Below are positions 2,901 through 54,088 of a stretch of 64,000 nucleotides of DNA, piece after piece (the first letter of the stretch is position 1; each line of letters begins with the position of its first letter). The notes under the pieces were generated by a model, which was given only the letters and a program-made list of their open reading frames with translations, was not told where the DNA came from and did not search any database. Source of the DNA: Candidatus Omnitrophota bacterium (lineage in GTDB: Bacteria; Omnitrophota; Gorgyraeia; Zapsychrales; JBAZNR01); assembly GCA_041649175.1 (NCBI GenBank), contig JBAZNR010000001.1:386332-450331 (forward strand), given 5' to 3'. The position numbers and the translations under genes were made by a program.

Positions 2901-5900
2901 AATTCGCTTGGAGCAATAGTGTCAAAGGCATTGATGCGGTCAATGATCTTATTAATGGCGGCTTCGGCGGCTTTAACAGCTTCTTCGTCTTTTGAGGCTT
3001 TGGCGCTATTGTATTGATTGATGAGGTTTTCTAATTCGGCTTTGATAGGTTCAATGAGGCGGGCAATGGTCGGAAGCAAATTGGCTTTTAGATCAGCCGC
3101 AACATTGTTCGGAGCAGACGTCTTTATAGCGAACCAGCCGCGCTCTCTGGCCAAGATGCCGAGGCCGGCGAGAACGATAAGGGCGCTAAGCGCCCCGGCA
3201 ACGATATTGGAAGCAAAAATGGCGCTTATCGCCCCCGCTACCATTACAATCGTCGCCATTACAGACGGCAATGTAAAGCCGTTGGCGGAGGAAGATAGAG
3301 AATTATTTTTATTATTAATCGGTGTGGTTTTAATAATCTTAACTCGTGCCGGAACATCAACTACCCACTTGGGCTCACTCCATTTTTCACTTTCAATCCA
3401 AGTCATATAGCTAACATCCCATTCCTTTTCAACTCCAAGATAATGCCCTTCTTCTCTATGGCCTTTTTCAGGAGAATACACAACTTCAAAGTTATGACCT
3501 TCTTCTCGAATTCTCAATGCTTCACGCAAATAATCCCACGCCAAGTTGAGAGGCAATGTTTTCTTTAAGATAGACAATACTTCAATGGCTAATTGAGTCT
3601 TTCTAATATTGTTCTCATACATTCTAAATATCTTTATATTATCTTCTGTTGATTCAATTTGATGTCTACCAAGAACACGTGTAATTTCTTCTATTTCTCG
3701 CGCATTATGCTTGTCTTTCGATATTGCAATGATTGCTTCAAAAACATATAAAACTCCATAAATAATTGGAGACAATGTGACTGAGAAGATGTATGCAAAC
3801 ACCATAAAGAATACCATCCATGCCCCCCTAGTTGGATCCGTGCTAGGATGACTAATATCATGATAAATGCCAAAGGTATAAGATATAGCAATAAATGATA
3901 ACGTTAAAATTACGAAGATTCTGCTGAACTTTTTATTGTCAAAGTTGTCACTTGAAAAAAGATAAGAATACAGGGCAAAATAAATAATTGCTACAAAAAT
4001 AAACGACACTACAGGATGGGCCAAAATTAATGTCCAAAATAAACTTAAAATACCACCTGCCGTTACCATCGCCATCATGGGCGGAAGGATGAAGCCATTA
4101 GCAGAAGTATTGTGAGGATCTTTATTAGCATCATTTTCTTTTGCCGGTAACACTTTCTTAATTAAACTCTTAACGTCGTTTATAAAATAACCTCGGCGGA
4201 TAGTTAATTCCATTTCAGCCTCCTTAGCAGATAATCCTTTGAAGAATGAACCGACAAGAATTCCGCCTAAGATCATCAAGAATGCGGCCGTTTTTGAATG
4301 AGAGCTGATCGTTTGTTGGAGGAGAGGAAGGATCTTGGTAGTGAACCACCATAATGTTACGCTAATGCCCGCTAAGAATATAGAGGCAGAAACTAATTTT
4401 GGCGCATCTTTCTTAATGATCATTCTAATTTTATTGCCGAGAGTAACTGGGATATTGTAAATCAACATTAACGCAAACCCTAAGAGGGTTAGCACAGTCA
4501 TAATAAATGTACCAGTCACATACAGATCAAAGTAATCTCTTGCTATTTTTAACTTGCTAAAAATCCACTCGGCCCATTTAAGCCATTTTACATTCACAAC
4601 TAAGGCATTCACAATACCTATAAAGGCATAAATAACGATTGTTCCTAAGATGGCATAATACTTATAGTCGCCAAAGAAGTAGAATCCTGCCGCTATTAAG
4701 CCCGCTGAAACTACGAGTGCAACAACACCTACTATCCAATTTCCTGCACCAAGCTTCTTAAAGAAATTACCAAAATCTTCTGTGAAATGTATTTTAGTCC
4801 ATGTCCACGCTCCAACTGTCGCCGGCGTAGAACCAGGATTTAAGATAAACGGAGCCATAAGAGCGGAAACAAGCATGAGAATAGGGAATAAAGACCAAAT
4901 AGCCGCCGGGCTTTGCCAGAGGAAAAGACCGCTGACCATTGCTAAGACAGCCGGAACGACCCACCCGAAACCAGGAAGCTTAATCTGAGAATATAAGTCA
5001 CCTTCTGTAAAAAGATCCTTAACGCCGGCAAGCCACATGAAAGGCAATCTATGTTCACGGCCGGTTCTGCGGCCTGTCTTAACATAATCACCGCTATTGA
5101 CCATGGCCTTCTTTTGACCGACAGAAAATGCATTGTAAACAAGCGACATATACACAATGGCCGCTTTAGGAAATACTCTTGCGAACGCTATAGATCCGTC
5201 AATAAACGTTTTCTCAAGAACCAATTGGAAATATCCGGTAAAGGTAATGGCCTGTGATAATAAAAGGCCAATGATACCAGCGGCTAATTCATCGGGGAAT
5301 GTAACGAAAAGACTGGCTCCAAATAAAATCACCACTATAACGTAAAGATTATTTTGGATGACCACAAAAGATTTTCTTAAGAAATAACCGATGGAAGCAA
5401 CAAAGTGCATAAAGGAACGGGAAAACCCGATAATGGACGAAGAATTATGCTGCGCGATTTCATACGATACGGCTTGTTCGCCGGCACCGGCACCGAATTT
5501 ATCAGAAATACCAAGTAACCCGCCATAAACACCTTCACGCGCTTTAGCCGCCTGCATAATTTCTCTATTAATGACTTTTTCTCCGTACATCGTCGCTTTG
5601 TAAGCGCCAAAAATATCTTCGTTAACCCACGGGGCACTTAAAAGGCCTAACTGACGGAAAGAAACTGTTCTGACAAAATCAGGATGCCCGTAATGATAAC
5701 GAATACCCATCCAGTTAAGCGAACGCTGAACCAATGTAGAGAAGGTATGATCACCAAAAGCGTGAACAGCACCGGCCGGCGTTGACACATCGGTAAAGAT
5801 ATCTTCAGGGAAACCGACGATCGCGACACGATTATCTTTAAATTCTTCCATCAGGTTAGGGGCTTTGAAAGTTTCTTCCAAATACATATCTTGATTCATA

Positions 5901-8900
5901 TCCATCATCTGAACAATTTCACCGCGAGTGAATCTAAATATATTGTTTTGGTTGACCGGTTTACCCTGCCCGGCCAAAGGCTTCGAAGATAGATAAATTC
6001 TTCTCACTTCAACAATTCTTCCCTTGCCTCTGTGATCGTTGAAAACAACAACAACTGTTTCTCCTGGTTGAGCCGGCCCTTCACGATACTCTAAAAGAAC
6101 ACCGGCATAGGTATCAACATCAGGGCTGTGATAATCGGTGTTCATATTCTTGTCGTCTCTAGGATTAGCTAAATAAGCGACTCTTAAGCCGGGATATTTG
6201 CGAAGCATATAGTTAACATCGTTGATAATTAACTTTTTGCTCTGGTCAGTGCTTTTTAGCCAATCGCCATACGGCTGATGGCCGACAACATATTCAAATT
6301 TTTCAGATACTTTTTCTTTTATTTCTTGTTCATATTCTTGTTTTGCATCCGTACTCGTAGAATCTATTCCTAAGCTTTCTGGTGTGGGGAAATTGACCTT
6401 AGCAAGCCATGTGTACATTTGATAATAATTCATAATACCGCGAATGGTACGGGCTAAAGGTTGATAGCGGTAGGAGACCCAAAGCCTTACCTCAATAATC
6501 AGATGGTCGTTTGTAATATCAAGTTTTTGTCCATATTGTAAGTTTTCTATGGCTTCAATATCTTTTTCAACCGCATCAACATCATCGGTTCCATATGTCC
6601 ATTTAAATCCAGCCTGATTGTATCTCAGGCTTTCGAATTCCCGACGTATACGGGCCTTAAAGTTTTCCCATTCATTAAGATGTTTGGTAATAAAGTACGT
6701 TAAAAGCGTCGCCTTAGTTTTGTAAGCTTCATTAATGGCATCATATTGCCCGACTGTTTTATCTGAGAATGGATACATGATCGGCTCATCAAAGATCGGT
6801 GTCGCAACGCTGAATAAATATAGCTTCTCCCAAATCGGCATTTGATCCATATCCATCAAGAAGGTGGAGAGAACAAACTGGATTCTTGCGCGAAGGCGTT
6901 GTGTTTCCGGGGCTTTGGAAAGATCCGGCCAACGAGTAACTGTTCCAGCTAAGAAATTATGTTCATCTATGCCATCAATAACAAATAACATTCTTTCTTT
7001 TTCTTCAATAGAGGCGAGGTCATCTTCCAAATACTGGCTGACGATCATGTTCCACGCTTTGGCAAAAGCAACGAGTTTTTCCTGTTCGGTAATAGCCCGG
7101 CGTTCTCTATCAGTACCAACAATAGAAGCAGGAACGATTTTCTCTTGGAATCCTTTAGCCGCCGCTTTAAATTTATCAATAACCGTATCGCCGCCTATTT
7201 TTTCAAGACCAATCCGGCCAAGCAAGGCATTAATAACGATAATACCAATCACAATGGCAGCCACAGCCCCGATAAGATAAAGCCAAGAGGAAGCAATCAA
7301 GCCGTGCACTCCGGCAATAAAGGCCGCTTTCCAAGGAGACAAATAAACAATACCCGCAACAGCCGCAATAAATGTCAGCGCTGATTTAACTCTTAAAGCA
7401 ATAGATGAAATGCCTTTGCCGCCCCAGCTGTTAATACGGTTAGCCCCGGTCCATTTAGCGATCCAGTACCCTAAGGCTCCTTCGATAATGTAGAAATAAG
7501 CGAATATATCCATAAGGAATATCATGAAGAAAATGGAGAATGTGATAGCGATAAGAATATACTGGCCGCCCGGAACTATTGGCCCTATTAGAGCCGTAAG
7601 CCGTTCCCACGGAATATTCCAGCTACTATTTTGCAGGATAATGAAAGCCTTAGATAACCAGCTCCAAATCAATACGTTCGTAAAAATCTTAGCCCCTAAG
7701 GTCAACACCATAACTAAAGAAGCACGGGCTTTACGGCCCAAGGTGCCATCCGGCGGATTATCTTTATAGCCTGCTTCGAACGGTACGGTTTCGCCATATC
7801 TTTGGTTCTTTAATGTATACTCTTGCTGATTGTGTCTATCAACAAACCAAATTGTGAAATAAGCAATAGCTAAAACACTTGTAGCAATTAAAGCGCCGAT
7901 AGCCCACGAACTAAATGCGATAACTCCGGTAAAATTCAAGCCGACCGCCGGAATACCGGATGTCAATCCGACAGAAGAAAGAATGATTGATCCGTAAAGA
8001 ACCGCAAAAATCTTCTTAAAGTTAACGATAACTCTAAACCAGCCTAAACGACCAAACTTAGATGTCTTGATGTCGGGATAAACTTTAGGAAGGATTTTAT
8101 TAACCGTGTCATTGCCATTAGCCAATTCTCTTTCAATTTCAGCCCGGCCACCGTTACGGTAAAATTTAATAAATCCAGGTGTTCTAAAATAACCTTCCAC
8201 ATCATTATGATGGATGGTCGCATATTTTGTTTTGCTCTTTGCTGACTCACTATGAGCAAAAATAATCCTGCTCCAAAGCGCCGCTTCAGCTTCAGCTTGT
8301 AATCCAAATTGATCATTACCGTTATTTAATAGTTCCATACCAGAGAAGAACCGATAGAAATCAAACGACGCTGTAACGTTGGCTAATTTATCTCCGGAAA
8401 GATTGATAAGATTATAAATGTACATCTCTCTTAATCCGTATTGGTCAATTTCTCTCAGCGCAGCTTCATAGTCGTCTGCGCTTAACACATCTTTCATAAC
8501 CGGAATAAACCAAACATGCTTGTATCTACGGAAGAATTCTTTTCGGATATCATCGATTGATTCACCGGAAAATAATCTTCGGCTTACTTCGGCTAACAAT
8601 AGATATTTGGCCTGGTCAACAACGCCGTTCTGGAAGCCATAAGATGGATAATTTTGAATTTCAGACAAGAAATTCTTAATTTCATCACCTGTATGTTTAA
8701 GAACAACTTGGTCAATAATATTTTTCTTAGGAAATAGAGATCTGAATAGTTGCTTGATCCAGGCGAGTAATTTACCGATGGTCATAACACCGGCGATATA
8801 AAGCGATATTAAAAGCAATATACCGCGCCAGATACCGATCTGGTTTAACCAATGCCAGAGTAAATGAGGCCTAATCTTATCAACTTGGTGATCGCCGACA

Positions 8901-11900
8901 TATGTATACTGCTGATCATAGACTTTTGAAACATCCATGCCTTCAGATTCACCGATAAGGATGACTGTTTTTTGATACATACCATCGGGTAATTCAAGCT
9001 CATACTCCTCGTTTGCCTGCTTGGCACCAATGATACTGAAATCAATATCCTTATAAACTTTTACTAAGTCACCATTTTCTAAGAAACTGAATACCGGTTT
9101 GCGATAAGAAGCGGTGGGATCATAAATGGTTGTTTCAACTCCGTTAACGGCAACGCCAAGTTGTTCTTTCATGATCTGCATACGAACAAAAGCATATCGT
9201 TCGGCTAAGAGGCGTCCACCGGGAGAATAAAGGACATTTGATTTGAATTTTGAATCGAGAACATGATACTCATTACCAACAATTGCGATCCGTGATCCAT
9301 CAGGGGTCGTCATAGACATTGTGAGCGGCCCCAACTTTTCTCTGGAAATCATGAACTCACGATCCAAGGTATCTTGATAGGCAAACGTAAACGCAGGATC
9401 TCGATCATTAGGGCCTTTATAGATTTCCACAAATCCAAGCTCACGGCCTTTTTCAACGACCATAACACCCGGCAAAAGATCTTCCGGCATGCGTACTGTG
9501 TCGGTTCCGCCGTTGGTAATAACTAAGGTCTGCGCTTCAAACCACCAAAGATTAAGGCCCAAATCGTTATTGGCGTAAATAGCGGCAATGTCACGGCCAC
9601 GGCTATCGTTAGGAACTAAATAATGGTAAATTGATCTTCCCTCGATAGAAGAATAAGCCCCATCAATATTTATTAATCTCGGCTTTTCTTCAATAATAGA
9701 TAATTGTGTCATCGGAGCGATACCGAGCTTATTCAAACCATCCCAAAGGTTTAATGTCGGATCATTAAATCTCCTGTTGGAAACATCGCTGAAGATACCC
9801 TCAACGCCCTGGTTGAATAATTGTCCGGCACTGATCGTTAATCCACGTTGTTGAGCTGCGGAATCAGATAATGTTCCAAAGGTAGATTTGACTTCATAAT
9901 CCGGAGTTAAGCTATAGGATCTTGTTAATTCACCCGTGCGAGGATCAAATTGTTCAGCAACAATGATCTCCAACACTCTGCCGAGTTCTATGCGGATCGT
10001 TATGAATTTTCTGGCTAAGTGGTCAAACGGAATGCGGTAATCGATGGTTTGAACGCCAAAGTTATTGGTCACGATGGTCGGCTGAAGAACAGTGTTTTCA
10101 TCAATGCCTAATGAACGAAGAGCTATGTTTGTTTCAGAGTTCTGGAAGACTTTTCCGGAATCAATCAAACCGGCTCTAATATTCTCACCTTGTTCGGCGA
10201 TCCAGGCCTTTGCCCAATTGGATTGAGGATCCGGACGATATTCAACAACGCGCTGGATAAATTTGGAATCTTCGTTGTATCTATCGGTCGCTCTCCAGTA
10301 ATAAATATCTCCGTTGATTTGAGCTAATAATTCGGTATCTTTCGTATATCCGACAGGAAGCTCGATAAATCCGATCTGCATATTTTTAACGTAACCATAA
10401 ACTTTATCGTATTCCGTTCTTTCCACAGGAGCATATCCGCCCCATCGATCAATTTCACGAAGATTGATAAACGTTTTGATAACGGTTGAATCGTTTCTTT
10501 GAATATCATAGACACCGGTCACATTGTATTGCCAGCCGCTATGTCCGTTTTGACGGCTAATAAATAAGGAATCAACGCCAAGATCTCTCGAGGAATCAAG
10601 CGATGTTGCATAAACTTCATCCCAGGTGATCGGGTTGACATGAATATCTTCTTGCTGAACGGTGTGTTGGCTACGAACGAGATTGCCTTTACCTGTGAAC
10701 GAATCAACCTGTTTAAATTGGCTTAATTTATTATGGATATACCAAGTTCTATTGTCAGAAGTCGTGCTGTCAGTGACACTGAACCAATTTAAGGAAATCA
10801 GGCCTTTAGCGGAATCTGCGGCCATTTTCTCGATAGCTTTCGGTAAGAATTCGAACGGAGCCGGATAAGGTTCTCTATCTCTTCCATTAACATAGTGGAG
10901 ACTGACAACTTCATTACTCTTTTGTCTTAAATCTAATTTACGAAGGCTTTCAGGATATCGATGATAGATAGTTCCTTCGGGGCCGATTTCCATCGCGAAA
11001 TAATTATCATGAACCCAGTTCATGAACGCCACGCCCTGACGGCCAAGCTCTAATGGAGCTTCTTTGTAGAATTTACCGGACGGTGAGGTGTAATTGGCGA
11101 CGGTGGTGCGATAAACAGGGTCGCCATTTGCATCAACTCTATCTAAGACAATGCCCTTTAAGCGGCCATTGGTTCCATCCACTAAAGCCTGCAACATCGG
11201 TTGTGTGACAGCAATGGAGCTTCCGCGAATAACCCCAAATCCTCTGACATAGCTTAATTCACGCTCGATCGTCGCGATATTGCCTTCGACAATGATCGGA
11301 TAAGCGGAACGTAATTCACTGGATAATTCACTGCCGCGTTTTGGCGTAATAACCATGGTGCGGCCGGTTTCATCGCCAATTTTGATCGGATATGTTTTGC
11401 CTTTATATTCCACGTGAATATAGTAGTTGCTGGAATCATCACGGGTAATACCGGCCGCTTTTAATTCTTCTGGTTTCATAAACGTAAGCGGTTTGCCCAG
11501 ATCATAAACATCACTTGTCACCGCACGCGGCGCTTTTCCGTCGAAGAATATGGCATAACCGGCGTAAGAGCTGTCAGTTAAAGCCGCTAAGTGTTCTCTA
11601 ATCACTCTAGGCCCGTAGGTAAAAATATCTCCGTCTAAGGTTCTATCCGCCGTAACGGTGTAGAATGAATCCGGAACGGTAACTTCTAATCTGGATGTGT
11701 CAGCTTGCGTCTTCATTTCAGCCGGCATAATTAGCGTGTCGCTTACAACCGGCGCAACAACAATGTTAGGAAGTTCTGTAATATTTTTGGATTTTCCACC
11801 GACTTTAACAATTGTCTTTTCAACAGATGCACCGGGAATAACTTGCCCATTGTTAAGATCGGCTGTCACTCTGGCACCGGCGGAAACATCACCATTATCC

Positions 11901-14900
11901 CGATAAGCGGATACGCTGCCGCGCCAATGGCTATCGAAGGCTTGTCCGACGTTAACATGAACGCCTTTAACCGGTGAAGCTTCTACCATCCAGGCAGGTT
12001 TTCCATCCACAAAACTAAAGGTTCCCTTAAAAGATTTGTATTGAATTCCGGCTGTCGTTCTGTCGAGCGTTTTTCCGCCTTTAAGATCAGCCGCCTGTTC
12101 AACACTGATGGTGATAGGGCCAAGATCTAATCCGGCACCGGCAACGCCATGAAGTTCTTTTGTTTTTCCCCAAAGATCATCGGTGCCAAATTGTTCGCTA
12201 AGAATAGAAAAGTTTAAAGTTAAGTTATCCGAAGCCTGAAGCTTGAAGGTCGCCTTCTCAAAACTATATTGATCTTGGGCTTTTAAGGCAACGTCGGATC
12301 TGTTGACAAGAATGCCCGTAAGACCGTCAAAAATTTCGATACGAGAATTAACATTGCCTTCGGATTGAGCAAGGCCGGCTTCTAAAATAACATTGGTGCG
12401 CCCGCTGGTGGAAATATCCAAAATACCGTTTAAGCCGGTAATGCGGTCCAGATCACCCTCATATTCTTCAACGCCCTGGCTTTTTTTGTTAATTTTTAAT
12501 TCATTGGAACGATATGTTTCGGCTTGGAAAATACCGCTAATGCCTAAATAAACGGTATTGGATTTATTATTCACGCCGATATTCTGGATCAAAACGAAGT
12601 AACGGCTGGTTTGTGTTTCAGTGTACCCATCGATAGGCCACTCATTGAAGCTGTAGCTTTGCATTTTTCCGGCGATGGTCTTGGAAATCAGTGTCGCTTG
12701 TTTATTGGTCAGGTCAATACCGACTAAGGCGTATTTAGAACCCATTCCAAGCGCTTCCGGCTGGACCTGGCCGACAAAGGCGTTGACACCGCCAACACCT
12801 AAGCTTTTTAAAATATCAAAAGCGGCGATCTGATTGGACGCGGAAACAATGGGTTTACCATCGCTATCGGTAAGCCGGTTAATAACAGATTGCCAAACTT
12901 GAGGAGCGGTTTGATTATTGAGGGTGAATTGATCGAGGTTAACCAGAGGAACAACTTCGCCTAAGACGTGTAAATTGCGGCCGACGCGAACAACCGCCGG
13001 AGGGGCGTGTTCAAGAGTCGCTAAATATTCTTCGAGCGCTTTGACCAGATTTTCTTTTTCCCCGATGGATAATGTATCGTTGGCATTGATCTGAACGGCA
13101 ACGCGCTCTCTTATTTCGCCTAAGATGCGGTTATATTGTTCATTGCCTTTTAAATAGCTTTCAAAAACGGCGGTAGCGGCATCATTGGCTTCTTTGGAAT
13201 TTTGTTCGGCATTATGAACCGCGCGAATACCCTGCATTTGCTGACGAGTTCCTTGAGCATGATCGCCTAAACTGCTTAACATATTTCCGAGCGGATCGCG
13301 TCCGGCGCCGGTGCGGTCATTGATGCGTTTAATGGATTCTTCTATTTGTTTGGTCCAATAATCTTTGTATTCTTCAACGCTGGCAGAATCAGAACCGATA
13401 TGAGAGAAGATATCATTGAACGCGTATAACCGTCTTAACAATTCAAGGCGCTCACTCTTATAGTTAAGCTGATTGATGTAGAATTCCAATTTTCTCACAA
13501 TAACATCAATAATGGATTCTTCGTTGGTATTGCCCGTCTGGAACAATGAATCTGCTGTTAAGTCCGGATATCCAAATTGGATGATATGCTCCGCTTCGCG
13601 TTCGTAGTTATGGGCGAGGCTGCCGGCTAAAGATCTTACTTCGACTAAAGAATCAGGCAGGCTGTCTCTTAAGGCATTCCAGAATGCAATGCTTTGCGGA
13701 ATGCTTTCTTCAACCGCCGGGTCAAGCCTGTCATTGTAATAATCTCTGGTTTCAGGGATCGTGTACACGCCAAAGGGACGTTTGCTATCTGCCGGCCAAG
13801 TCAAAGGAGAGATAGGAAGCAATAAGTGGTAGCTAACGGTCGTATTATTTAAGGCGTCGTTGATGATACGAATGGTATTTTCTTTCCAGGCGATATAGTC
13901 AATTTCAATGTCTCTTTTAACGGTTAAGATCTCTTGAGGCATTTCAAAGAAGGCAGGAGCAACAGCGTATTCCATGGCATCATTAGCCACTCTGTCTCTT
14001 TGTCTTTGAACAATACCAATACCGACTTGTGTATTGTGGATCATATCCACTGTTAATTGATGCCATGCGCCCTGTTGTCCGCGAGACACGATTTCTTGGC
14101 CTTGCCAGAATGGTAAGGCTTCATTAATACGCTGGACAGCTCCCATGACCGGCGCGTTAGGCGTTTGATCATCTTCATCAAAGTAACGAAACGCGGACGC
14201 AATGGAATCTTCCGGCATAAGGATATTGGCATAAGATAAGCTGTCGCCTCGTTCAAGCCAGATATTAAGCGTATCTAAATAACCAAAATGACGGGCTAAA
14301 TCAGCATTTGCTGAATCAAGTGTTGTATCGCTCCAGCTATAAATATCAGAGATCGGGATGATCGTTCCTTCATGATTCCTAAGGTGATTTAAGTTCTCTA
14401 TGAGGATATCGGTTCTATCAACATCAGCTTCGAGGCTGTCGAGATCAGAGGCCTTAATAATTCCTGAGCTTGAATCCATGGCCGCAAAGTATTCTTGGCG
14501 TAATCCGCGAATTGCATTGTCCGCGCCCAATGTATCGGCTTGGACTCTAATATCAGCCAATAAAGAATCGAATGTCATCTCACGAGAGGTCGCTACTTCG
14601 TGAATGAAATGATAGATATTTAATTTGGAGGAAAGCTTCACTTGTTCTTCCGGTATGGCTCTCATGATCTCATTAAAGCTAAGCCCTTGTTTTCTTAATC
14701 CTTCTTCAATGTCATTTGAGCGCAACTGAATATAAGCAGAATCGGCTTCTTGAGAAAGAAGTTGAGCATTATCAAATTGGCCGCGAAGCGAATCAATAGC
14801 GGATCTTTCTACCGCTAATTGTCTGGCTAATTGTTCTAATGAAGCGCTGTTCAATCCGGCTAAAGATAAGACTTCATCTAATTTTTCTACATCCGCTGAC

Positions 14901-17900
14901 ATCTGGCTGACGTAAAACGATAAAGGCATAACAACACTATCCGTAACGACTTCAGTCGTTCTTTGAGTAACCGGTAAGCTATCTATGTAGAAGGTTCTGT
15001 TACCTTCACTATCAATGCTGACACCAGAGGCATCACGCTCATAAAGTTCTTTTTTGAAATCAGGAACATTAGCGCCGTATTCTAAAATACCGCCTTCGTT
15101 GGCAGCCGGATTAACGCGCGGGCCGGAGATAATGGCTTTTGGCGGTAAGCGGCCTTCTTTAGGAGTAATAATGACTGAGTCAGTCACAACATCGTTCTTA
15201 TCAAACCAGCGGTAAATAATTGATTGACCGGTTCTCAGATCCTTCGTGTTGATCGCATCCATTTCGGCTTGCGTATAAAGATAATAGCTTCCGTGAGGCG
15301 TGATAGCGCGGGCTAAAGGAACACGATTAGGCTTAGCAACTAAGATGCCAACTTCCCCTTCTTTAACGATAGTTGTATCGGTAACAACGGTTAAACCTTT
15401 AGGTAATGTCACCGCGTAAGAACTATCTCCTCTGGTTTCATGAACGGTTAAAAGAACATCTTGAGATTCTGTTAAGACGCTTGATGAAACCGCGCTCATA
15501 TCATTCACAGCCACGGTTCTGGTTCCACTGGCGCCCATTACAATGACATCCGCTTGTTGGCCAACGTCTTCACGGTTGAACCAATAATCGGTCAGGGCTG
15601 TTTCTTCGCTGTAAATAACGACCGGATGAATGGCGCGTCCATCATTGTAGCGGCCAAGATCGCCCGCCGGGTTGACATCCGCTTCAGCCACACCGTCCAC
15701 TAAAACATTCATTCCTTCGCGATGTGGGAGAACTTGTTTGACAGTTAACGGTACGCCTCTGGTTTCATAATAGGTAGCCAGGATCTCGCCGGTTATAGGA
15801 TGGATCTCGGCACCGACGATACGATTACCTTTTTCATCAAACCCGACATAAATATTATATTGTTTTTGGATATTTTCCAACATCTTAGCCGACGGAACAA
15901 TGTAGCGTTGGCCGGGCTGCATATCCCAGGCTTTATTTTCCGGATGTTTAGGATCATCAATGAATGTCTGGATCAAAGGAACATCGCTTCCCTCTTTGGT
16001 TAAAAAGCGTGTGGATGAAAATTCCAAGTATTTTCCTGCCTTGCCTTTGCTTTCCATATATTCTTGAAGATTATATTTAAATCCAAAGACATACCACTGG
16101 GCCGGATCTTTTCTTTCGCGGCCGTTTTCATCAATGACAATTAAGCTGTCGCCTTTTTGTCCGCGTTCGATCACATACATTAAATTATTATCTTTGTTGT
16201 CATAGGCGATTCTGTTGAACGCGACCTCTAATTGGCTTGGGATATACGCAACACTATAGCCGTCAAAGATCCAAGATTGACGTCCATCACCGAAGATTTG
16301 CTTTCCAATGCCGTAACCAAGTGCTTTTCTGAATACATCAGGGAAAATGGCGGCCGGGCCGAATTGATAAAAATTACCGTTATCGGAAGCGATAAAGCTG
16401 GAGTCTTTTAAGACCGGATTGGTATGGAATTTCGTATGTTTAAAGGTTAAGGCATTAATGAACACAGAATTGTCGGTGGATTCCCAGATCCCGCCGTTTT
16501 GTTCGGGGTCAATTTTATTGCTGACAATTTGATTACGAACACCGGATATGGCGTCGATCATATAAACGGCGCCGGCAAATTCACCGAGGGTCAAATGTCC
16601 GCGGAAAAGGTGTTTGAAGGATTCATCGGCGCCCAAACCTTGGTTGAGCAATTCAAAATACGGCGTGTACGGTGAATTGATAATAACGTTGACACCAAAA
16701 CCCTTAAGGTATTCCGGTAAAACTCCATTGAGCGATTTATGATATAAGGCATTGCCCGGTTTCCAATTCCATCCTAAACCTAATCCTAAGCGGGTTGCGC
16801 CTGTATTATAGGTTCCATAAATATTCTGGTAGTCATCAATGATCTTCGATTGAACACTGTCAGGTAAGGAAACAAAGCTTCGGGCATGGGCTGAGATAAC
16901 GGCATAGATGCTATTATCTAACTTATGAATTCTTTCTAAGGAAAGAACCGTATCGCTTAAGGCGAGGCTGTCCCATGATCGCAATTCTTCTCGCATATCT
17001 TCGATGTTGTGGATAACATCTAAAGAATCAGCGATAAGTTTTGCTTCCGCGGAATCAAGCGCGGCCGTTGTGGAGGCGGCCAGTGGGAAGCTGATATTTT
17101 TATTGCTTAAATATCCGTCCGGATCAACAGCTTTACCATTGATTCTTACTTCAAAATGCAAATGCGGTGTTGTAGTGTTATTGGCATTACCGCTGATACC
17201 GGTGAAACCTAAAGTGTCGCCTTTGCTGACTTCTTGGCCGGCTTTCACATTTGTTTCGCTTAAATGAGCATAAATAGCTTTCGTAGCGCCGCTATCAACC
17301 CAAACGTGAAGCCCGAAACCATCTTCGCTGTTACCGACACCAACGATGCCACCCTGCGCCGCAATGACCGGAGTTCCAACGGAAGCGGCAATATCAATAC
17401 CGCCGTGTTCGTAACTCACTTCTTTTCCATCCACCATCTTGGTTCTATGGTCGCCAAAATGCCCGTTCGGAGTTAACGTGAAGAGGTCAGCGCTAAGATC
17501 TAAGGCTCTATTTGTTTCTAATTGGGCTGTTTCGGTAGGATCATTCTCAACCACCGGCGTAAATTCTTCGGTTGAGTTAGAAGCGCCAAATGTGCCCGGG
17601 CCTTCAATAGCGTAAGGATGTTGTTCGGCCGCGAAAACATCCGACGGCATCGCAACCAACATGCCGGTCAAGTAAGATAATCCTAAGAACACTGAGGTCA
17701 ATCTCGGATGACGGCGATAAACATCACGGACGAGAGCAAAAATAGATTGTGGTTCGTCATAATACTCTTCAGCGGTCGTCTTTTCCTGGAAGGCCGCCCA
17801 ATTTTCCTCCGGAGTAAGTAGTGTTTCCTCTTCGGGCTCTAAACCTTCTCCGCTGGTCGCGTTGACATCTTCTTCGGTGTAAAAACCAAATCCCGCTTTG

Positions 17901-20900
17901 TAAATCATACGGCGATGTGCATTCATTAATTGCTCATTTAATTCTTCTTCAGTCAATTCATCAAATGTTTTAGCCGGCTCTACGGTTTCTTCTGTTGAGA
18001 TCTCTTCCGTTGCGGGTTCTTCTGTAACAGCCTCTTCTTGAACTTCTTCTTGCGTGGATTTTTCAGCGCGAACTCTCTTTGTTTCTTTGACAATGGCGGC
18101 AATAACTACGGCAATTGCACCTACCGCTAAAATACTGCCTCCGTTGTCGGGAGAAGCTGTTGTGCTAGCCGTCGTCTGGGCGAAGAGATTACTGCTTGGG
18201 GCAATGATCATGGCAATGATGAACGCGTCTTTGAGATGTTCTCTGAACCATGCAAAAACCGGGGAAAATTTTGATCGATGGGTGAAGTATTTGATTGATC
18301 TTTGAACACGTTTTAAGTTGTAAACGATCGGCGCTACGGCAGCCCAGAATATCATTGCGCCGATCGCATAAGCAATGATATCCCCTATGTCTTCGGTCAA
18401 CGTAAGCCAATAAAGATTGTGCTGATTAATAAAGTCGCTAAAGAATTCTTGTATGCTTAAAGCAACCGTCACGGCCATCAGCGTCACAGGGAAAAGATTA
18501 GGATTAACAGGCTTAATGGGCCTGATCTTTTGTTCCGGAGAACTGTGTTCGTTAAACATGAACTTGGCAATGATCTTAGATTTTCTGGCGATCTCAACTA
18601 AACCAAGAACCACGCTTGTATACCACATCGGATCTAAGACATTAGCGAAATAATCATGCGCCAACGGGCTGATAGCTTTAAAATCTATATAAGCAAAGAA
18701 ATAAAGGAAAATAGCGATCGGCGCGAAAACAAAGTTCTGTCTTAATGAGTAAACTCCGAAAAGGATCGTGCCGCCATAAATAATGATCGGGGATAAAATA
18801 CCTAAAATGCTGGCATCCCACGGCCAAACATCGCCTTGCGCGCCAAAAGCCGCAACTGCCGTTACGGCTAAGGCGGCGAGAATTGCCGTTAAGAAGTTCG
18901 GAGCGACAAAAGAGTTCTTGGTTTTTTCTGATTTAGTTTCTGCTAATTCAACTTCCTGTTTGGCGGTTTCATTGTTCACAAATCCATACGTGCCCGGCCA
19001 GAACCAGAGGAGCGCGATCTGCCCTGCTGAAAACGCCAATTTTAAGATCGGGTCAACCACGCTTACGAACCATTGCGGCATATTGCCTTTACCGAAAAGT
19101 AATTGCGTGGCGTCTGTTTTGAGATAATTTCCGCTGGCGTCTTTGCCCGGGATAAGCGGAATGAGGTTCATAACAAAGAGGAATAAGTTAAGCCAGAAAC
19201 TGTTGGATAAGGCAATGGTTATCAAAAGCTTGAGGCTGATCGCGCCGATCATGATGGATGCAGGGAAGAAAGCAATGACAGCTAAAAGCAATAACCCGGA
19301 AACAGCGAATAATTTAAAGTTATTCCCAGGGCCGGCAAAAATAACTTTTCGATATTCGCTTCCAGTCGTGTAGTCATGGTTGACGCTGACCGGAATAGCC
19401 GCGCCGACTTTAATACCTAAAAACGGTTTAAGAATCGTTTCTTTAAAACTAATGTGCTTCCAAATCTTCCAAACGGTCGCTCTTTCAGGTAAAGATTCTG
19501 TCTTATCGCCAAATAGCAAGGCTGTGATCGCGTGTCCATATTCGTGATAGGCCAAGTAGAGAAGAACGGACGGCCAGACAACAGCCATCCACAACCAACG
19601 TTCCCCAACGAAGAATCCAACAAAAGCCATAAGATCAAATTGACCTAAAGCTAACACAGCGTCTTTCATGGTCGTCAATAACCCGCCAACAGAAAGCATG
19701 GTCGGGTCAATACCGAAAAGTGCGATCGCGATCGCCATCAAGGCAACCGTAACAATTGTACCGACCACAGCAACCGCCACCGGTAAACCGATGCGTTTGA
19801 GCAAAGAATCTTTTTCACGTAATGGCTGACCGTCACCTTTAGTGCGCGGGAAACCTTCCCCGGCTAAACGGTCATGAGCGGCAACGGTAGCTATTTCTTT
19901 AATACGTTTTTCGCTCAGCAATTCAACAATATCTTTTAAAGGACGATTACCGATCAACATCATCTGTAAGACGCGGCTAATCGCTAAAGTCTCTTTGAAT
20001 AATCTTAATTGGCCGTCTTCATCTTTTTCATCAAAGCTGACAATAGAATTTCCGTTAATGAAATCTCTATTAGAAAGATGTTGACCTATACTGCGGCGAA
20101 TAACTTCTCTTTCTTCTTCAGAGGCTTCTAAAATCTTACTGAGGGAAATTGTTCTGTTATTCTGGTTCCAGATCTCACCTAACTGTTCTTCCGTTAAGTC
20201 TAAGCGGCCGCTCACTAAACTCAAGAAGATCGCTTTTTCTTCTTCGGTTGAAAATGACTGTACGGCCCCAAACGCTTGATTGATAGAAATTGACGCTACA
20301 AAATAATCGGAAAGGCCGAATAACTTTTTAGCTTGTTTTTGAGTTAAAGTACCACGTTCTAAAGCTTCTTTGCCCTTTGTGGTTTTCCAAAATCTCTTGA
20401 GCCACGGACGATCTTTGGTCAAACCTTTAAGTTGATCTTTATCAGCAACCAGATAAACGGGCTGATCTTTAATCGCTTGAGCGGTTTTCTTAACGACATC
20501 AATTTTGGCCGGATCAACTAAATATTCATTGTTGGCGAAGTAAAGTGCGGCGGCCGACGGATTGGAAAGAATGAAATAAAGTGTCGAGACATCAATGGTA
20601 GCTCTTAAGAATTCTTGGGCTAAAATCGCATTGTAAAAAAGTTGCGGATTGTTGGTTAAATCTTCAAATCGGTCTAAAGCTTCTTGCAAGGCGGTAACGT
20701 TCATATCATCCTTAATGAACGGCAGGACTTTTTCGTCTTCAATGCTTAAATCTTCCGTTGCCAATGTGCCGTTAGAAAGCCAAAACGCGCGTGCGTCTAC
20801 GGTTAAAGCACCACGGCGCACTAATTCAAATCCTAATTCTCGAAGTTGACGTTCGAGAGCAATGCGGCGTTTTTCAATATCTAATTCTTTGGATAAATAA

Positions 20901-41900: not shown

Positions 41901-44900
41901 AGATTGGTATCTTTTTCCGTTACCCCATATTTTTCTTGAAATCTTTTAGATAATCCGCGGCCGCCATTGGTGAGATCTAACCAAACTCCTACCTTCCCGC
42001 CTTCTTTGGCTTGCGCGTAATCCACAACACCCCAAGAAACAATGCCAAGCCCCATCCATCCGCCAAAGCCCATTAAAGCGGCGTTTGTTTGCCCGGGTTC
42101 GATAATCGCGTGGCGCGTCAATGGCTTTTCTTTTCCGTCCGGGCCTAAGCCTATTCTCACAAATTTATCTTGAGGAAGCCCTAAAACAGCTATTGTTCCT
42201 TTGGCAAATTTTTCTCTTTGTTCTGCTGATTTGGTAGCGAGCCTGGCGGATAATCCAGCAACGCCTTCCACTAAGGCACCGGTCGTATACGTTATATTTT
42301 GTACAGACGCCTTAGCCAGCGTGGCGTGCATGTTATTAACGTAATAACTTTGCGCAAGCGCGCCGGGTAAAGCAATTAACTGCGCTTCATATTGCTCTTT
42401 CAAATAAATTTCTTTATTTCCATCGTAGGCCTCATATTTTTCTCTGATTTCCGCCCTAGATAACCCTTTATCTTCCGTTTCATTGAAACGGCGCATATCT
42501 TCCTTCATCCGGCGCGACTCACGCACATAATCAATGCCCATACCGGCTGCGGCCGTGACGGAATTAATATAATGATCAAATCCGCTAATGGTCCACTTTT
42601 GGCCGTTTTGAGGAATAGAGCCTTGATACGTATAAAAATCATTGGACATTCTGGCTAAATCGCCATAAGAAACCATGCCAAATTTTTGGAAGAATTTTCC
42701 GACTGTGGAAGCCACTTTAGCTATATCACTTTTTTTACCCCACACCGCTTTTTGCTTATCTATTGTCGTATCATCTTGGAGGTCCTCTACTTTTCCAAAG
42801 GCCCCCATATAAGCTCCGTGCGCAATAGCGGTAGCAAAGAAAGCAATGGTCAAAAATTGTGTAGCTGACATTCCTTTTTTTCCGGTCTCCGCATTGGCAA
42901 CATTATTTTGATACGCTTGATCTAAGGCGAAAGCAAAGAGTGAGCCAACCATGCCCTGTCCAAAAGGAGAGGCCATAAACCGAGAAAGACTATCCCAAAC
43001 AGATGAATCTTTGCTAGAACCACTCGTCCCCGCTCCGAAGAAATTCGTATCAAACCCATTCAAAGCATAACGGCTGCCGGTTTCGCCTAAAACGCCAATG
43101 GCTTCCACCAAATAATAATGTGTTGAAGGGTTAACGGGTTTCCCGAAGAAAAATTTATTTTTAGTAAAATACCATTTCATCAATGTCCCGGTACCTTGCG
43201 TGATCAAACCAGGTGTCAGAGATTTAAATTGATCGAAAGCCGCATGCAAAGGATTATTCGAAAGCTCTATCTGACCTCTTGGATTGTCTATATTAAAGTC
43301 GCCTTGTAACCATCCTCTTTCGAGACCCATCTTAGACCCGGCCCAATCCATACTGACCGTGGTGCCGGCTAAAACCGGAGTTGAAATCCCGGTCATCAGA
43401 ATGTTGGAAACACCTTGGCGGAGAATATCGTTACCAATGTTTTTAACGAGAGGCTGGATAATATGCTTGTCGGCTAAAACTTCTATGCCGGCTTTAGCCG
43501 TGCCATAAAGAAGGCCTCTGGCAAAACCACCACCAAAAGCCGATAAAGCACTACCCTGCGGACCCATCTGCCCTAGCATTGCTTGCAACTGTGTTGGGCC
43601 GGTAAGATTGCCCGAATTCCATGCAATCTGCTCTCCAACCATTGAGGGAGTAACGCCTGACAACCCAGTAGATTCCAATGTTCCCCCGGTTAATTGTTGA
43701 AATTGCGTGGGGCCTGTGAGATTACCCGCTTCCCATGCGGCTTGTTCAGTTAAGATATTTGGATTTTTTAAAATTTCTTTGGAAGCCGCATCAGCGCCTG
43801 CTTTAGCACCTAAATTATTTGCGTACGCGCTAACCCCCATGGACACACCAACCGTAAATGCCGTCGAAAAGATAAAAGCACCGGTTTCATTCCACCAGCC
43901 CTTCATCACGCCGATCTGTCCTAAGGTACTTCCCAAACTTCCTATCCCGTTGCTTATGGCAAAAGCTCCGGGATTAAATCCGGTGGAAGCAAAATTGACC
44001 AAACTCATGAGCGCTTGCGTTCCCACAACGGTCCACATGTCGCTACGGCTAAAAGCTACTCCCGGTAAAAAGTCATGGGCGCGGCTGTGCCACTGAGAAC
44101 CCCAAACAAAGGCTTGAGTAGCTTCGCTGACAATTTCCGCTTTTTCTGATTGGACAATACTTGGCGCTAAAACGAACCCGGTAGATTGTTTGGCAAAATC
44201 TTCGCGCGAAATGGTAAGGGACTTTCCAATATCGGTGTACGAAACCTCTTTGTCATCAATCGCTGTTACAGTAATGAAATGTTCAGATTTGAAGTTGGCG
44301 ATGAATGGCGGTCTTAAATTGAAAATCTCTTCAGCCGGTAAACGAACAGCTTGGACATTTAATCCATAAGCATTGGCGATCTTATTCAAAGCAAAAAGAG
44401 AGGTCTTAAGCTTCGGCTCACCCGGCTCAATAATGTTGTTCAAAAGGTCCACTGCTAAAGTAACCACCGAAAGCTCTTCTAAAGCCACTTCAATGTCGCG
44501 GCTCATGAGAAGATCTTTAAGGGCGTAAACACCGCAGTTTAAAGGGTGAATACTGGGATCGCGCAGCCAAGAATAAATCTTTTTGATGCGGCTGTCGGTC
44601 ACGGTTGTTTCTGACTTTATTTCAATGGTTCTGTCTTCTAATTCCGGATTGGAGACATTTTGACGGGGCAGTCTGAGGTTGATTTGGGGCTTTTCTTTGT
44701 AGGCGATTTGTTTTAAAAGATTCTCAACGCTTCCGGCAATTTGGGCAGAAGCGACTTCTTCGGGAGAGGCATCGGGGCTAACGGCATTGACAGCTTTGTC
44801 TTTCCAGAGAACAGCCGGATTATAGTTAAACGCCCAGCTGATCTGGTCAGGAATAAAAATGACAACAATGAGCAAGGCCACCGTTCTGATCCAGGCCTTA

Positions 44901-45909: not shown

Positions 45910-46815
45910 TTATCGTTTCTGTGAAGCGCCGCCAACCAAATTCTTCATAGGATTGTTCTGCATGAAATCCAAGAATATGGGAGCGCCAACGAGAATAGCA
46001 ACAACGGGGAAAATGAAAAGCAAAAGAGGAACAAGCATTTTTAAAGGAGCTTTGAGAGCTACTTGCTCGCCACGGCGAAAGCGCGCCAGGCGCATATCTT
46101 CCGATAGGATATTGAGCGCCTCGGCAACCGAGGTTCCCATTCTATCCGCTTGGATAAGCGTACGGGTAAACGTGGTTAGATCCGGCAGGTCGTATTTTTT
46201 GGACAAATCGCTTAGGGCATTGCGGCGCGACTTTCCGACATTGATCTCCTGCATGATCAAATTCAGCTCATCCGCTAAAGCCGAAGGCGGTGTTTTCTCA
46301 ATGACCCATTTTAAGGCCAACATAAAATCAAGGCCGGCATTAACGCATAAGCCTAGAAGGTCAATGGTGTCAGGAAGCTGTTTGACGATAGCATTTTTGA
46401 CTTTACTGATCTTTCCTTTAAGCCAAAACTCCGGCAATATATAGCCAATGGCAAAACCCATCAGCGATGTAAATAGGATCACATCTGCCTGAATAAAGGG
46501 CAAAGTTGCCCCCAAAAGCCCTCCAATGATAAGCTCTTTAATGAGCAAGAATTCTTCGGGAGACATATCAACCTTGGCTAAAGCTAAATCCTTTGAAATA
46601 CGGGCCCCTAGAGGGCCAATACACAGCGGTTTATTGAACATCGCCAAACCCTTAATAAGGGCTCGCGGAGCATCTGTCCATTTCTTCTTTCTATCGGTTG
46701 CGGCTTTTTCGTGAACCAAAGAAAGGGTAGGGCGAAGCACCTGGTCAAAAGGCAAAATGGCATAAGCCAGAAGCACTCCGGTAGCAAAGGCTAAAATAAG
46801 GATGACAATTTGCAT
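45910..46815 (-). CDS. tadC: Tad/Flp pilus assembly inner-membrane protein TadC-like (T2SS-F family)
   Basis: A 301-aa ORF with the GspF/T2SSF-type layout of TM helices and a cytoplasmic helical domain. It lies immediately after a paralogous T2SSF gene, matching the tadB-tadC order. Confidence 0.75.
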   Translation of the reverse strand: MQIVILILAFATGVLLAYAILPFDQVLRPTLSLVHEKAATDRKKKWTDAPRALIKGLAMFNKPLCIGPLGARISKDLALAKVDMSPEEFLLIKELIIGGLLGATLPFIQADVILFTSLMGFAIGYILPEFWLKGKISKVKNAIVKQLPDTIDLLGLCVNAGLDFMLALKWVIEKTPPSALADELNLIMQEINVGKSRRNALSDLSKKYDLPDLTTFTRTLIQADRMGTSVAEALNILSEDMRLARFRRGEQVALKAPLKMLVPLLLFIFPVVAILVGAPIFLDFMQNNPMKNLVGGASQKR

Positions 46816-46837
46816 TATTTTCTCACCAGTTAGTTAA

Positions 46838-46966
46838 TTTCCAATAACCAAATGCCAATGACCAGATAAACTTCAATAACCAATTTTCTAATTTCCAAAC
46901 GTTTTTAACATTGATTATTGATAAATTGGGAATTATCTGGATGTTGAAATTTGGTCATTGGTTATT
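46838..46966 (+). repeat. MITE-like intergenic repeat, copy A, about 130 bp, with imperfect terminal inverted repeats (aataaccaa..caatgacc / ggtcattggttatt)
   Basis: It fills the whole tadB-tadC spacer. Its first 100 bp are about 88% identical to copy C at 52,069-52,165 and it is the reverse complement of copy B at 47,915-48,040. The shared core is ccaaacgtttttaacattg. Confidence 0.6.
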
Positions 46967-46969
46967 ATC

Positions 46970-47827
46970 CTAAAAATCCTTAAACGTACTTATTTTCCAT
47001 ATCAAAAATGCTCCGACGAGCTCGGAGGCGACAGCGTACATCAAAAGCATTTTCCCAATATCGGAATTAAACATCTGGTCAAAGAAATTCTTATTGGTCG
47101 CTGTCACAATAAAGGCAAAACCAATAGGTAAAAGCGACATAACAACGCCCTGAATTCTTCCTTGCATCGTTAAATTATCCAGGTTTTGTTTTATCTTTTT
47201 ATTCTCCCGGATAACGCCGATGATGCGGGCAAAAATGACGGGTAAATTACCGCCGGTTTCCCGGGCTAAAAGAATAGCCGTGATCATCTGATTTAAAGCG
47301 GTGGAAGGCACCCGGTCATAAAGGTGCGCGAACGATTCTTCTAAAGACACGCCCATTTTATTCTCGCCGAGCAAAATGGCAAATTCCTGATTAATAGGGT
47401 CCGACATTTCTTCGGTGACCACTTCGATAGCTTGAATAAGGCTTAAGCCGCCGCGCAAAGAGCTTGACATGATCATCAGCGCGTCAATGAGCTGATCATT
47501 GAATTTATCCATTCTTTTTTCTGCTAAAACCTTGATCCAAAGCCCCGGGCCGATGAGGCCTAAAAATACGCCTAAGCCTAAACCAAACCAGCGAAATTCC
47601 GTCGGAGCGACAACAAATCCGGCTACCGCGCCGATCACAGGCGCGAATGTATAAAGCACCACAATACGGTTAATTTTTGAGCGCATGAACATGCGGTCCA
47701 TTTTATCGGAAAGTCCTTTGGCGCGTTTTTGATTGATCTGCATAGCCAGATTAAAAGCGGAAGGGGCAATGACCCATGTTAAAAGGCCGGCGGCAGAGAA
47801 GATGAGCAGCATAATAAAAAGACGCAT
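46970..47827 (-). CDS. tadB: Tad/Flp pilus assembly inner-membrane protein TadB-like (T2SS-F family)
   Basis: A 285-aa ORF with the T2SSF-like domain (...LDALMIMSSSLRGGLSLIQAIEVV...) and N- and C-terminal TM helices. Confidence 0.75.
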   Translation of the reverse strand: MRLFIMLLIFSAAGLLTWVIAPSAFNLAMQINQKRAKGLSDKMDRMFMRSKINRIVVLYTFAPVIGAVAGFVVAPTEFRWFGLGLGVFLGLIGPGLWIKVLAEKRMDKFNDQLIDALMIMSSSLRGGLSLIQAIEVVTEEMSDPINQEFAILLGENKMGVSLEESFAHLYDRVPSTALNQMITAILLARETGGNLPVIFARIIGVIRENKKIKQNLDNLTMQGRIQGVVMSLLPIGFAFIVTATNKNFFDQMFNSDIGKMLLMYAVASELVGAFLIWKISTFKDF

Positions 47828-47914
47828 GGTACTATTTTTGCTTAAAGCCTTTCAAAAATCAACTTTAATATGGAAAATTAACTTTGCGGGTTGTGGGGAT
47901 GCATTATGAGTTTT

Positions 47915-48040
47915 GGTCAATGACCAATCACCAAATTCCAACATCCAGATAATGTTCAATTTACAAATAACCAATGTTAAAAACGTTTGAATATTGATTA
48001 TTGGAATTTGTTTGGTGATTGTGTTTTGGTTATTGGAATT
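47915..48040 (-). repeat. MITE-like intergenic repeat, copy B, in inverted orientation
   Basis: Its reverse complement aligns base for base with copy A (...attccaataaccaaa...caaacgtttttaacattgg...attatctggatgttggaatttggtgattggtcattgacc). It lies between the Cys-rich pilin gene and tadB. Confidence 0.6.
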
Positions 48041-48048
48041 TCAGAAGT

Positions 48049-48567
48049 CTACTGGCAGATATTATCATCCGCGTTGATGCAGTCTTCAATGCAGTTTTGT
48101 TCTTCGGTCAATTCGCAACTTCGTTCGCAATCTCCGTGAAATTGGCTGGGATTACCGTTGGATTGGTTGCACCGATCACGACAGATCGTTGCGCATGCCG
48201 GATCGTAAAACATGCTATCAGGATCACAGAACATATCATAACAACCGTTGAGACAGGCTTGATAGTGGTTATAAAGCCCTCCTTCACAGCCAGACACGCA
48301 AGACGTGTGGATGGGATCATAACAAGCATTGTAGCATTGCAGGCTATACCAGCCTTCGTGCTCACCTTGAGCCCAAAGGCATTCGGTTGTTTTTTGCGGG
48401 TCATACTGGCGGCCTTCGCTGAACACTTCCGACGCTGATTTCCAGCGCCCGGCAAGTCCGCGCAAAATATATTTTTGCATTAACAGAATCGCACCGATCA
48501 TTAGAATGATCAAGGCGACATATTCTAAAGTTGAAGCAGCTTTTTTTTGACAAAAAAATTTAATCAT
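48049..48567 (-). CDS. TadE-like pseudopilin with a cysteine-rich C-terminal domain (172 aa, about 22 Cys)
   Basis: The N-terminus KKAASTLEYVALIILMIGAILL matches the TadE/Flp-type class-III signal and hydrophobic stem. The C-terminal half is packed with CxxxC and CxC pairs. Confidence 0.6.
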   Translation of the reverse strand: MIKFFCQKKAASTLEYVALIILMIGAILLMQKYILRGLAGRWKSASEVFSEGRQYDPQKTTECLWAQGEHEGWYSLQCYNACYDPIHTSCVSGCEGGLYNHYQACLNGCYDMFCDPDSMFYDPACATICRDRCNQSNGNPSQFHGDCERSCELTEEQNCIEDCINADDNICQ

Positions 48568-48570
48568 CGT

Positions 48571-54086: not shown

Positions 54087-54088
54087 AT

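Follow-up and report, generated by a model that had tools for sequence, protein, structure and literature searches.

We analysed a 64,000-nucleotide stretch of the genome of a Candidatus Omnitrophota bacterium (assembly GCA_041649175.1, contig JBAZNR010000001.1, positions 386,332 to 450,331; hereafter the window). Its minus strand holds a frame that stays open without a stop codon from window position 45013 down to position 2, or 15,004 codons in a six-frame scan. The frame runs off the start of the window, so that all lengths are lower bounds (at least 15,004 amino acids, aa) and the C terminus lies outside; in the residue numbering, aa 1 is the codon at window 45013, where the frame opens. 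The earliest ATG codons are at 44995, 44977 and 44965, and taking the first of these, the giant open reading frame (ORF) occupies 2–44995. Within its product, a stretch of about 900 residues contains an M50 homologue, a multi-pass membrane module, an acidic linker, a signal-peptide-like anchor and a complete M23 peptidase domain. The stretch belongs to one giant membrane protein, and we regard the account of it given below, with its proposed topology and mechanism, as reasonably probable overall. A preliminary description of the DNA had placed two metallopeptidase modules in a single polypeptide, with an HEYGH motif about 2 kb upstream of the M23 motifs in the same frame, and this is what we find: all five motifs that it named sit in one open minus-strand frame.

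The giant frame is not peculiar to one assembly, since Logan, which assembled run SRR8542065 independently, agrees with the window letter for letter across 10,998 nucleotides (nt); on the Logan contig the giant gene is called at 15,190 aa or more and is incomplete there too. Short plus-strand ORFs at 17004–17267, 18054–18305 and 18783–19127 overlap the giant frame and are taken to be spurious. A Kyte–Doolittle hydropathy scan lists 50 hydrophobic windows in the giant protein, some overlapping, in several clusters, and its 15,004 aa include only two cysteines.

The M23 domain retains all catalytic residues

The Peptidase M23 (LytM-type) domain lies at 17120–17410 on the minus strand (aa 9202–9298) and is identified by Pfam, NCBIfam and PDB matches. 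The motifs YEHGGIDIA (aa 9201, window start 17413), AHLS (aa 9249, window 17269) and HLHFE (aa 9284, window 17164), previously described as textbook M23 motifs, were read from the translation. The assignment is unambiguous, and the Pfam PF01551 match covers profile positions 2–96 of 96 (E = 1.1e-25, 90.1 bits against a cut-off of 28.7). All five catalytic and zinc-binding residues are present, namely H9203 and D9207 (HxxxD, in EHGGID), H9250 (AHLS), and H9284 and H9286 (HLH). In the alignment with the closest solved relative, PDB 6jmx (E = 1.2e-18), the His and Asp of HxxxD, the AHLS His and both HLH His are all matched; alignment over the zinc ligands had been set beforehand as the test of the M23 assignment. 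Judged by its residues, the domain is thus catalytically complete, and it would be expected to cut the peptide cross-links of peptidoglycan.

The best NCBIfam matches are to active endopeptidases, Pgp3, MepM, Pgp6, DipM and ShyA (E = 1e-20 to 1e-15), at scores far below the equivalog cut-offs (73 against 300 for Pgp3, 67 against 341 for MepM); on this evidence it belongs to the M23 family without being orthologous to a named enzyme. The domain shares with the Campylobacter/Helicobacter Pgp3/Csd-type enzymes (PDB 6jmx), MepM and ShyA the full M23 profile, the conserved HxxxD, central His and HxH, and a position after a membrane anchor, predicted to be outside the cytoplasmic membrane. Unlike these proteins of 250–450 aa, it is embedded in a giant polypeptide, and regulatory domains of the LysM or coiled-coil type are missing.

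A divergent site-2-protease-like module precedes the M23 domain

The HEYGH motif (aa 8490–8494, window 19546–19532) is 2.1 kb upstream of the M23 HxxxD, and the two peptidase domains are some 700 residues apart. It is the only HExxH in 15,004 residues, with 0.21 occurrences expected from length and composition. HEYGH terminates the hydrophobic stretch WLWMAVVWPSVLLYLAY, which the structure model renders as a single helix from aa 8461 to 8500, and is followed by NLIPLIP (aa 8616–8622, window 19168–19148). The region from aa 8471 to about 8640 (19094–19603, minus strand) is assigned by homology as a divergent M50, or site-2-protease (S2P)-like, intramembrane metalloprotease module.

Profile searches with existing models fell short of their thresholds. 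PF13398 (Peptidase_M50B) matched at E = 0.005 (17 bits, cut-off 26), and NCBIfam and PDB sequence searches of the region returned no match. Word-indexed homology searches were empty for this region as well as for the whole M50-to-M23 interval, the candidate list of 8,000 having probably been filled by low-information words. An exhaustive phmmer search of aa 8400–8960 against 1.84 billion representative proteins gave 107 matches at E ≤ 1e-3 (best 1.7e-8), about 100 of which span aa 8476–8624, from just N-terminal of HEYGH to NLIPLIP. Most are proteins of 200–230 aa with 30–40% local identity over about 150 residues, and PF02163 was assigned to all 60 of the matches that we tested (best E = 6.7e-20).

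Identity over the whole alignment of the query and these 60 homologues is 24–31%. The family consensus reads HExAHA..GDxTA..GRLTLNP..H.D..GWAKPVPVNP..AGPxSN..FNLLPIPPLDGS, of which the query retains HEYGHA, GD, R, H, P-V..N, GP..N and N..P..P. A hidden Markov model (HMM) built from the 60 homologues, with the query left out, scored 86 bits on aa 8471–8622, a figure somewhat inflated by the choice of members for their similarity to the query. A family profile of the query plus the homologues matched every solved site-2 protease: MjS2P at 8e-13, RseP at 4e-12 to 6e-7 and SpoIVFB at 1e-6. The module also has the core fold of site-2 proteases in its predicted structure, a fold shared with MjS2P (3b4r), RseP (7w6x, 7w6z and 9j83) and SpoIVFB (8vjl).

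Canonical M50 modules (HEYAH ... NLLPxxPLDG) occur in at least four further metagenomic proteins or protein fragments of 619 to 4,189 aa (P0007, P0013, P0016 and P0105). A profile of the query and these four modules retrieved 7,995 proteins; PF02163 was found in all 120 of those listed, and those with a source name bear the label 'site-2 protease family protein' or 'Zn-dependent protease'. An H-I-S motif is common to the four modules and to that of the giant protein and does not occur in the stand-alone family, which suggests a lineage of S2P modules specific to giant proteins.

Because of the roughly 100 phmmer matches, the PF02163 assignments in 60 of 60 homologues and the 86-bit HMM score, the HEYGH segment is a true, if divergent, sequence homologue of the small site-2-protease (M50) family, not a chance motif. 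The possibility raised earlier, that it might be a generic HExxH with no M50 fold behind it, therefore falls away given the PF02163 homology and the matches to solved site-2 proteases. Its setting is also as first described: hydropathy, loop charges and the model place HEYGH in a hydrophobic helix within a multi-pass membrane region. With the small stand-alone proteins (about 200–230 aa, PF02163) the module shares the HExxH at the end of a transmembrane (TM) helix and the conserved GD, R, H, PV..N, GP..N and N..P..P; it differs from them in scoring below the Pfam cut-off, in an LDG Asp displaced by an insertion and in being fused inside a giant protein.

These differences bear on whether the copy is a working enzyme, and here several observations count against the simplest reading. 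Peptidase_M50 itself (PF02163) was matched at E = 0.012 and 15.4 bits with a 581-aa query and at 7e-5 and 22.7 bits with a 241-aa query, each time below the cut-off of 27.2, so that the Pfam check proposed in the preliminary description missed the gathering score and the homology came from phmmer and the HMM. Of the two M50 signature motifs that had been noted, HEYGH and N..P..P are present (N8616, P8619 and P8622 are conserved), but the family LDG is replaced by GKDASGNYLKTDAT, with P-G-K-D-A-S-G-N-Y-L-K-T-D-A-T where the family has P-L-D-G. The LDG Asp, the third zinc ligand, is consequently out of register: depending on the alignment, the candidate ligand is D8625 (19139–19141), shifted by one residue, or D8634 (19112–19114), following a 10-residue insertion. 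The HMM alignment stops at NLIPLIP, just before the LDG position, leaving the C-terminal third of the family profile unmatched, and the predicted local distance difference test score (pLDDT) of the model is below 50 at K8624–A8626.

On account of the displaced Asp, the low pLDDT and the end of the HMM alignment, catalysis by this copy is uncertain and the module may be inactive. It could be a pseudoprotease that has lost catalysis and serves as an anchor, a scaffold or a substrate-binding element, leaving the M23 domain as the sole working metallopeptidase of the region. In addition to the features just listed, this copy is the odd one out beside the canonical PLDG of the four modules from other long proteins. 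We nevertheless think loss of catalysis, though a serious alternative, less likely than not, as the HExxH is intact with its catalytic Glu, the further family-invariant positions (GD, R, H, P-V, GP..N, N..P..P) are retained, and either of two Asp near the motif could act as the ligand.

Predicted membrane topology

Loop charges alternate consistently over aa 8381–9160. The first segment, aa 8381–8411, is placed inside (seven Lys/Arg) and leads into a TM segment at 8412–8430 running from inside to outside. The HExxH helix (about 8473–8500) then runs from outside to inside, the orientation of site-2 proteases, and is followed by TM segments at 8574–8592 (in to out), 8596–8614 (out to in, with NLIPLIP at its inner end) and 8650–8668 (in to out). 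Three further TM segments (8707, 8736 and 8760) end inside, and four more (8840, 8879, 8927 and 8957) alternate, with inner loops rich in Lys/Arg. Hydropathy, the positive-inside rule and S2P homology together point to an M50 active site within the membrane, towards its cytoplasmic face. Two features of this topology weigh against leaning on it too heavily: it derives from a Kyte–Doolittle scan and loop charge counts under the positive-inside rule rather than from a trained predictor, and its parity requires aa 8452–8470 to be part of the long HExxH helix, as they are in the structure model.

Part of this region, aa 8719–8904 (18302–18859, minus strand), forms a conserved multi-pass membrane module with invariant residues in E..R, LQE and D..D..Y..G motifs. 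It is common to two short proteins (P0001 and P0002) and two proteins of several thousand residues (P0004 and P0015), has no Pfam family, and gave neither a reliable model nor an informative fold match.

The last TM segment is followed by an acidic linker of 129 aa (17702–18088, aa 8976–9104, minus strand), which by its charge count (35 Asp/Glu, 14 Lys/Arg) is predicted to be cytoplasmic. Next comes an internal, signal-peptide-like anchor (17645–17701, aa 9105–9123, minus strand), recognized from the translation, its hydropathy and its flanking charges: RRHPR, then LTSVFLGLSYLTGMLVAMP, then SDVFA-AEQ. Taken with its flanks (17645–17716, aa 9100–9131), the segment resembles a Sec signal peptide: RRHPR precedes a hydrophobic core of 19 residues, and a V-x-A site in SDVFA-AEQ would put a cleavage-like site at about aa 9128/9129 (VFA-AE). 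Aa 9100–9131 may thus be a candidate cut site of the giant protein on the outer face of the membrane. The signal-peptide-like segment stands directly N-terminal of the M23 domain, as if a gene for a secreted M23 protein had been fused in frame.

By hydropathy and the positive-inside rule, the aa 9105–9123 anchor is predicted to run from inside to outside, and for this reason we predict that the M23 domain lies beyond the cytoplasmic membrane, where it would head an ectodomain of about 2,900 residues. The preliminary description had the M23 domain anchored at the cell surface; the predicted anchor lies instead in the cytoplasmic membrane. The next comparably hydrophobic segment is at aa 12059, so the M23 domain heads a presumably extracytoplasmic stretch of about 2,935 aa (8840–17644, aa 9124–12058, minus strand) with no strong hydrophobic segment (hydropathy maxima ≤1.54). 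In this stretch Pfam found no domain but M23, and a PDB sequence search of aa 9320–12058 was empty. The part that follows the M23 domain (8840–17119, aa 9299–12058, about 2,760 residues) is dark sequence that lacks cysteine as well as strongly hydrophobic segments.

The two peptidases are neighbours in a modular protein

The preliminary description took the M23 and M50 domains for parts of one coupled machine, and here our results differ. The predicted topology separates the two active sites, with that of M50 towards the cytoplasm and that of M23 across the membrane from it. In BLAST comparisons, the giant protein matched P0007, P0013, P0016 and P0105 in the M50 module only, and P0001, P0002, P0004 and P0015 in the second membrane module only, without M50. 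As the M50 module and the second membrane module occur apart from each other, and without M23, in other long proteins, they appear from these sequences to be shuffled independently in giant proteins. With the active sites predicted to be on opposite sides of the membrane and the modules unlinked elsewhere, a coupled machine is unsupported by the evidence: the two metallopeptidases stand near each other in a protein built of modules, and no functional pair is demonstrated.

The comparative evidence has its own weak points. BLAST detected no M23 in any of the eight proteins, a result limited by the method and by the fact that some of them are fragments. Searches for an orthologue yielded none: a scan of species-representative genomes gave only an unrelated Oceanobacillus M23 gene, and of two scans of Joint Genome Institute (JGI) metagenomes the first was empty and the second, made with an alignment of the second membrane module, gave one 1.5-kb contig.

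A pairing of the same two families is known from Bacillus sporulation, where SpoIVFA carries a membrane-anchored LytM domain on the outer face and SpoIVFB is an M50 protease in the same membrane (PMC3533761; bioRxiv 10.1101/2021.07.09.451828). The likeness is confined to that pairing of a membrane-anchored M23/LytM domain with an M50 protease. The SpoIVFA domain is catalytically degenerate and acts in localization and inhibition (PMC3533761), and the two Bacillus proteins are separate polypeptides, whereas here the catalytic M23 residues are intact and the domains covalently linked. The window offers no BofA, pro-sigma-K or CBS-domain context, and we treat the resemblance as analogy, not membership.

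Other domains of the giant protein and the upstream gene cluster

Near its N terminus the giant protein has a hydrophobic signal anchor, TVALLIVVIFIPDQISWAF (44828–44884, aa 44–62, minus strand), found in the hydropathy scan. It resembles the N termini of the giant-protein fragments P0007, P0013 and P0105, which likewise begin with an anchor of this kind. A Peptidase C39 domain follows at 44165–44551 (aa 155–283, minus strand; Pfam PF03412, E = 1.6e-8 over aa 200–283). Cys160 (window 44536), one of the two cysteines of the protein, lies in the motif NCGVYAL, some 40 residues N-terminal of the segment aligned by Pfam, at the expected place of the C39 catalytic Cys. Retention of this putative catalytic residue suggests that the domain works as a protease and is not just C39-like.

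Far downstream of the peptidases, a 1,3-beta-glucan synthase (GT48) domain of the FKS/callose-synthase type, at 4742–6901 (aa 12705–13424, minus strand), sits within a dense TM cluster at aa 12059–13955. It matches Pfam PF02364 over profile positions 6–703 of 819 (E = 8.2e-74) and the yeast FKS1 and GSC2 structures in the PDB at about 1e-37 to 1e-38. Most known members of this glucan synthase family are eukaryotic.

Upstream of the giant gene and in the same direction lies a cluster resembling type II secretion system (T2SS) and Tad loci (45910–63720, minus strand), with genes assigned by Pfam. It encodes a secretin with a TonB_C domain (62101–63720), a 721-aa fusion of a ParA/CpaE-like protein and a T2SSE ATPase (59927–62092) and two T2SSF proteins (46970–47827 and 45910–46815), all on the minus strand; ORFs of 1049, 827, 529 and 172 aa are among those in the cluster with no Pfam match. 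Genes for RcpC and a Rotamase_2 isomerase lie just past the window, on Logan contig L001.

Giant ORFs have been reported across the phylum Omnitrophota (Seymour et al. 2023, PMC10066038). The proteins described by West-Roberts et al. (2023, bioRxiv 10.1101/2023.11.21.568195) have an N-terminal signal with C39 and many TM segments, and upstream of their genes lie secretion-system gspD/E/F-like genes, rcpC and a Rotamase_2 isomerase gene. The protein in the window resembles these 'Archaeovorin'-type proteins in several ways: its ORF is well above 7,000 aa, its TM segments are many, most of its sequence defies annotation, a C39 peptidase comes after the N-terminal anchor, peptidase and glycosyltransferase domains are dispersed along the chain, and secretin, GspE-like, GspF-like, RcpC and Rotamase_2 genes lie upstream. 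Because its anchor, C39 domain and upstream cluster match the published description, we assign it to the published Omnitrophota giant-protein class by these sequence hallmarks, in a window that contains no marker gene, and the fit to giant proteins proposed in the preliminary description stands. A divergent SecA-DEAD domain, found in most class members, gave no match (E ≤ 0.01) within the window's 15,004 aa, the C-terminal part of the protein lying outside it. M23, M50 and glucan-synthase domains are absent from the main texts of West-Roberts et al. (2023) and Seymour et al. (2023).

Discussion

Which wall the M23 domain cuts, that of the producer or that of prey, and any cleavage of the giant protein are offered here as proposals, and this tempers the interpretation as a whole. 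We favour, at somewhat short of even chances, a role in which the M23 domain would open the producer's own sacculus locally, allowing passage or insertion of the huge ectodomain and of the adjacent T2SS/Tad-like apparatus. The argument is one of analogy: dedicated wall hydrolases open the sacculus for other envelope-spanning machines.

The main alternative, in line with the preliminary description, is that the M23 domain is part of a predatory weapon, carried by the long ectodomain to the surface of bacterial prey, perhaps once proteolysis has set it free, where it would digest the prey's peptidoglycan. Roles in prey adhesion and wall digestion have been proposed for the class (West-Roberts et al. 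2023, 10.1101/2023.11.21.568195; Seymour et al. 2023, PMC10066038). The domain is catalytically complete, is preceded by a cleavage-like site, and heads a presumably extracytoplasmic stretch of about 2,900 aa, enough to reach past the envelope; a secretin-containing system is encoded immediately upstream. We consider this the less likely role all the same, since the M23 domain comes directly after a cytoplasmic-membrane anchor, the ectodomain is re-tethered by TM segments from aa 12059, and Pfam and PDB searches revealed no adhesin or carbohydrate-binding domain beside M23. Furthermore, the archaeon Methanosaeta is not known to have peptidoglycan. It is on Methanosaeta that the one cultured relative dealt with in the giant-gene papers preys.

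The least credible explanation puts the two sets of motifs down to coincidence, with HEYGH a random HExxH among hydrophobic residues, or regards the 45-kb frame as a mis-assembly or a fusion of separate genes. In its favour are the M50 domain not being called by Pfam at the curated threshold and the empty word-indexed searches; we rejected it, as a stop-free frame of 45,012 nt is impossible by chance, the exhaustive search gave about 100 significant M50 matches over 150 residues and not at the motif alone, the HMM score is 86 bits and the Logan assembly is identical.

Alongside local opening of the producer's wall by M23, the M50 module, if active, would cleave type-II transmembrane stubs, with segments of the giant protein itself as the likeliest substrates. 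Natural substrates of site-2 proteases are type-II membrane stubs left by a first, outer-side cut, as in RseP action and signal-peptide clearance. A candidate here would be the aa 9105–9123 anchor after a signal-peptidase-type cut at VFA-AE (about aa 9128), and the M50 module and the N-terminal C39 domain could together contribute to processing of a polyprotein. The possibility that giant proteins are cut up by their C39 and S8 domains was suggested earlier (West-Roberts et al. 2023, bioRxiv 10.1101/2023.11.21.568195). That an active M50 module processes the giant protein in cis, cleaving this anchor and similar stubs, is speculation and in our estimate improbable. Were it true, this chain of over 15,000 aa would be a polyprotein inserted in the membrane and matured by the C39 and S2P domains that it carries, one product would be an ectodomain headed by M23, and the M50 modules in P0007, P0013, P0016 and P0105 would point to self-processing as a general strategy among giant proteins of bacteria.

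The class and its genomic context are already published, and M23 and M50 are textbook families. New are the set of domains, C39 with S2P-like, M23 and GT48, the last three unmentioned in the main texts of West-Roberts et al. (2023) and Seymour et al. (2023), and the recurrence of S2P modules in several very long metagenomic proteins. The FKS-type domain suggests that the giant protein not only degrades envelope polymers but also makes them. Little of the giant proteins of Omnitrophota is annotated, and the part in predation proposed for them depends on a few recognizable domains. The locus sharpens the known picture of the class rather than changing it: a complete M23 endopeptidase domain gives an expressible handle on the hypothesis of cell-wall degradation, and the recurrent S2P module, together with C39, offers a way to test whether such proteins work as single chains or as cut pieces.

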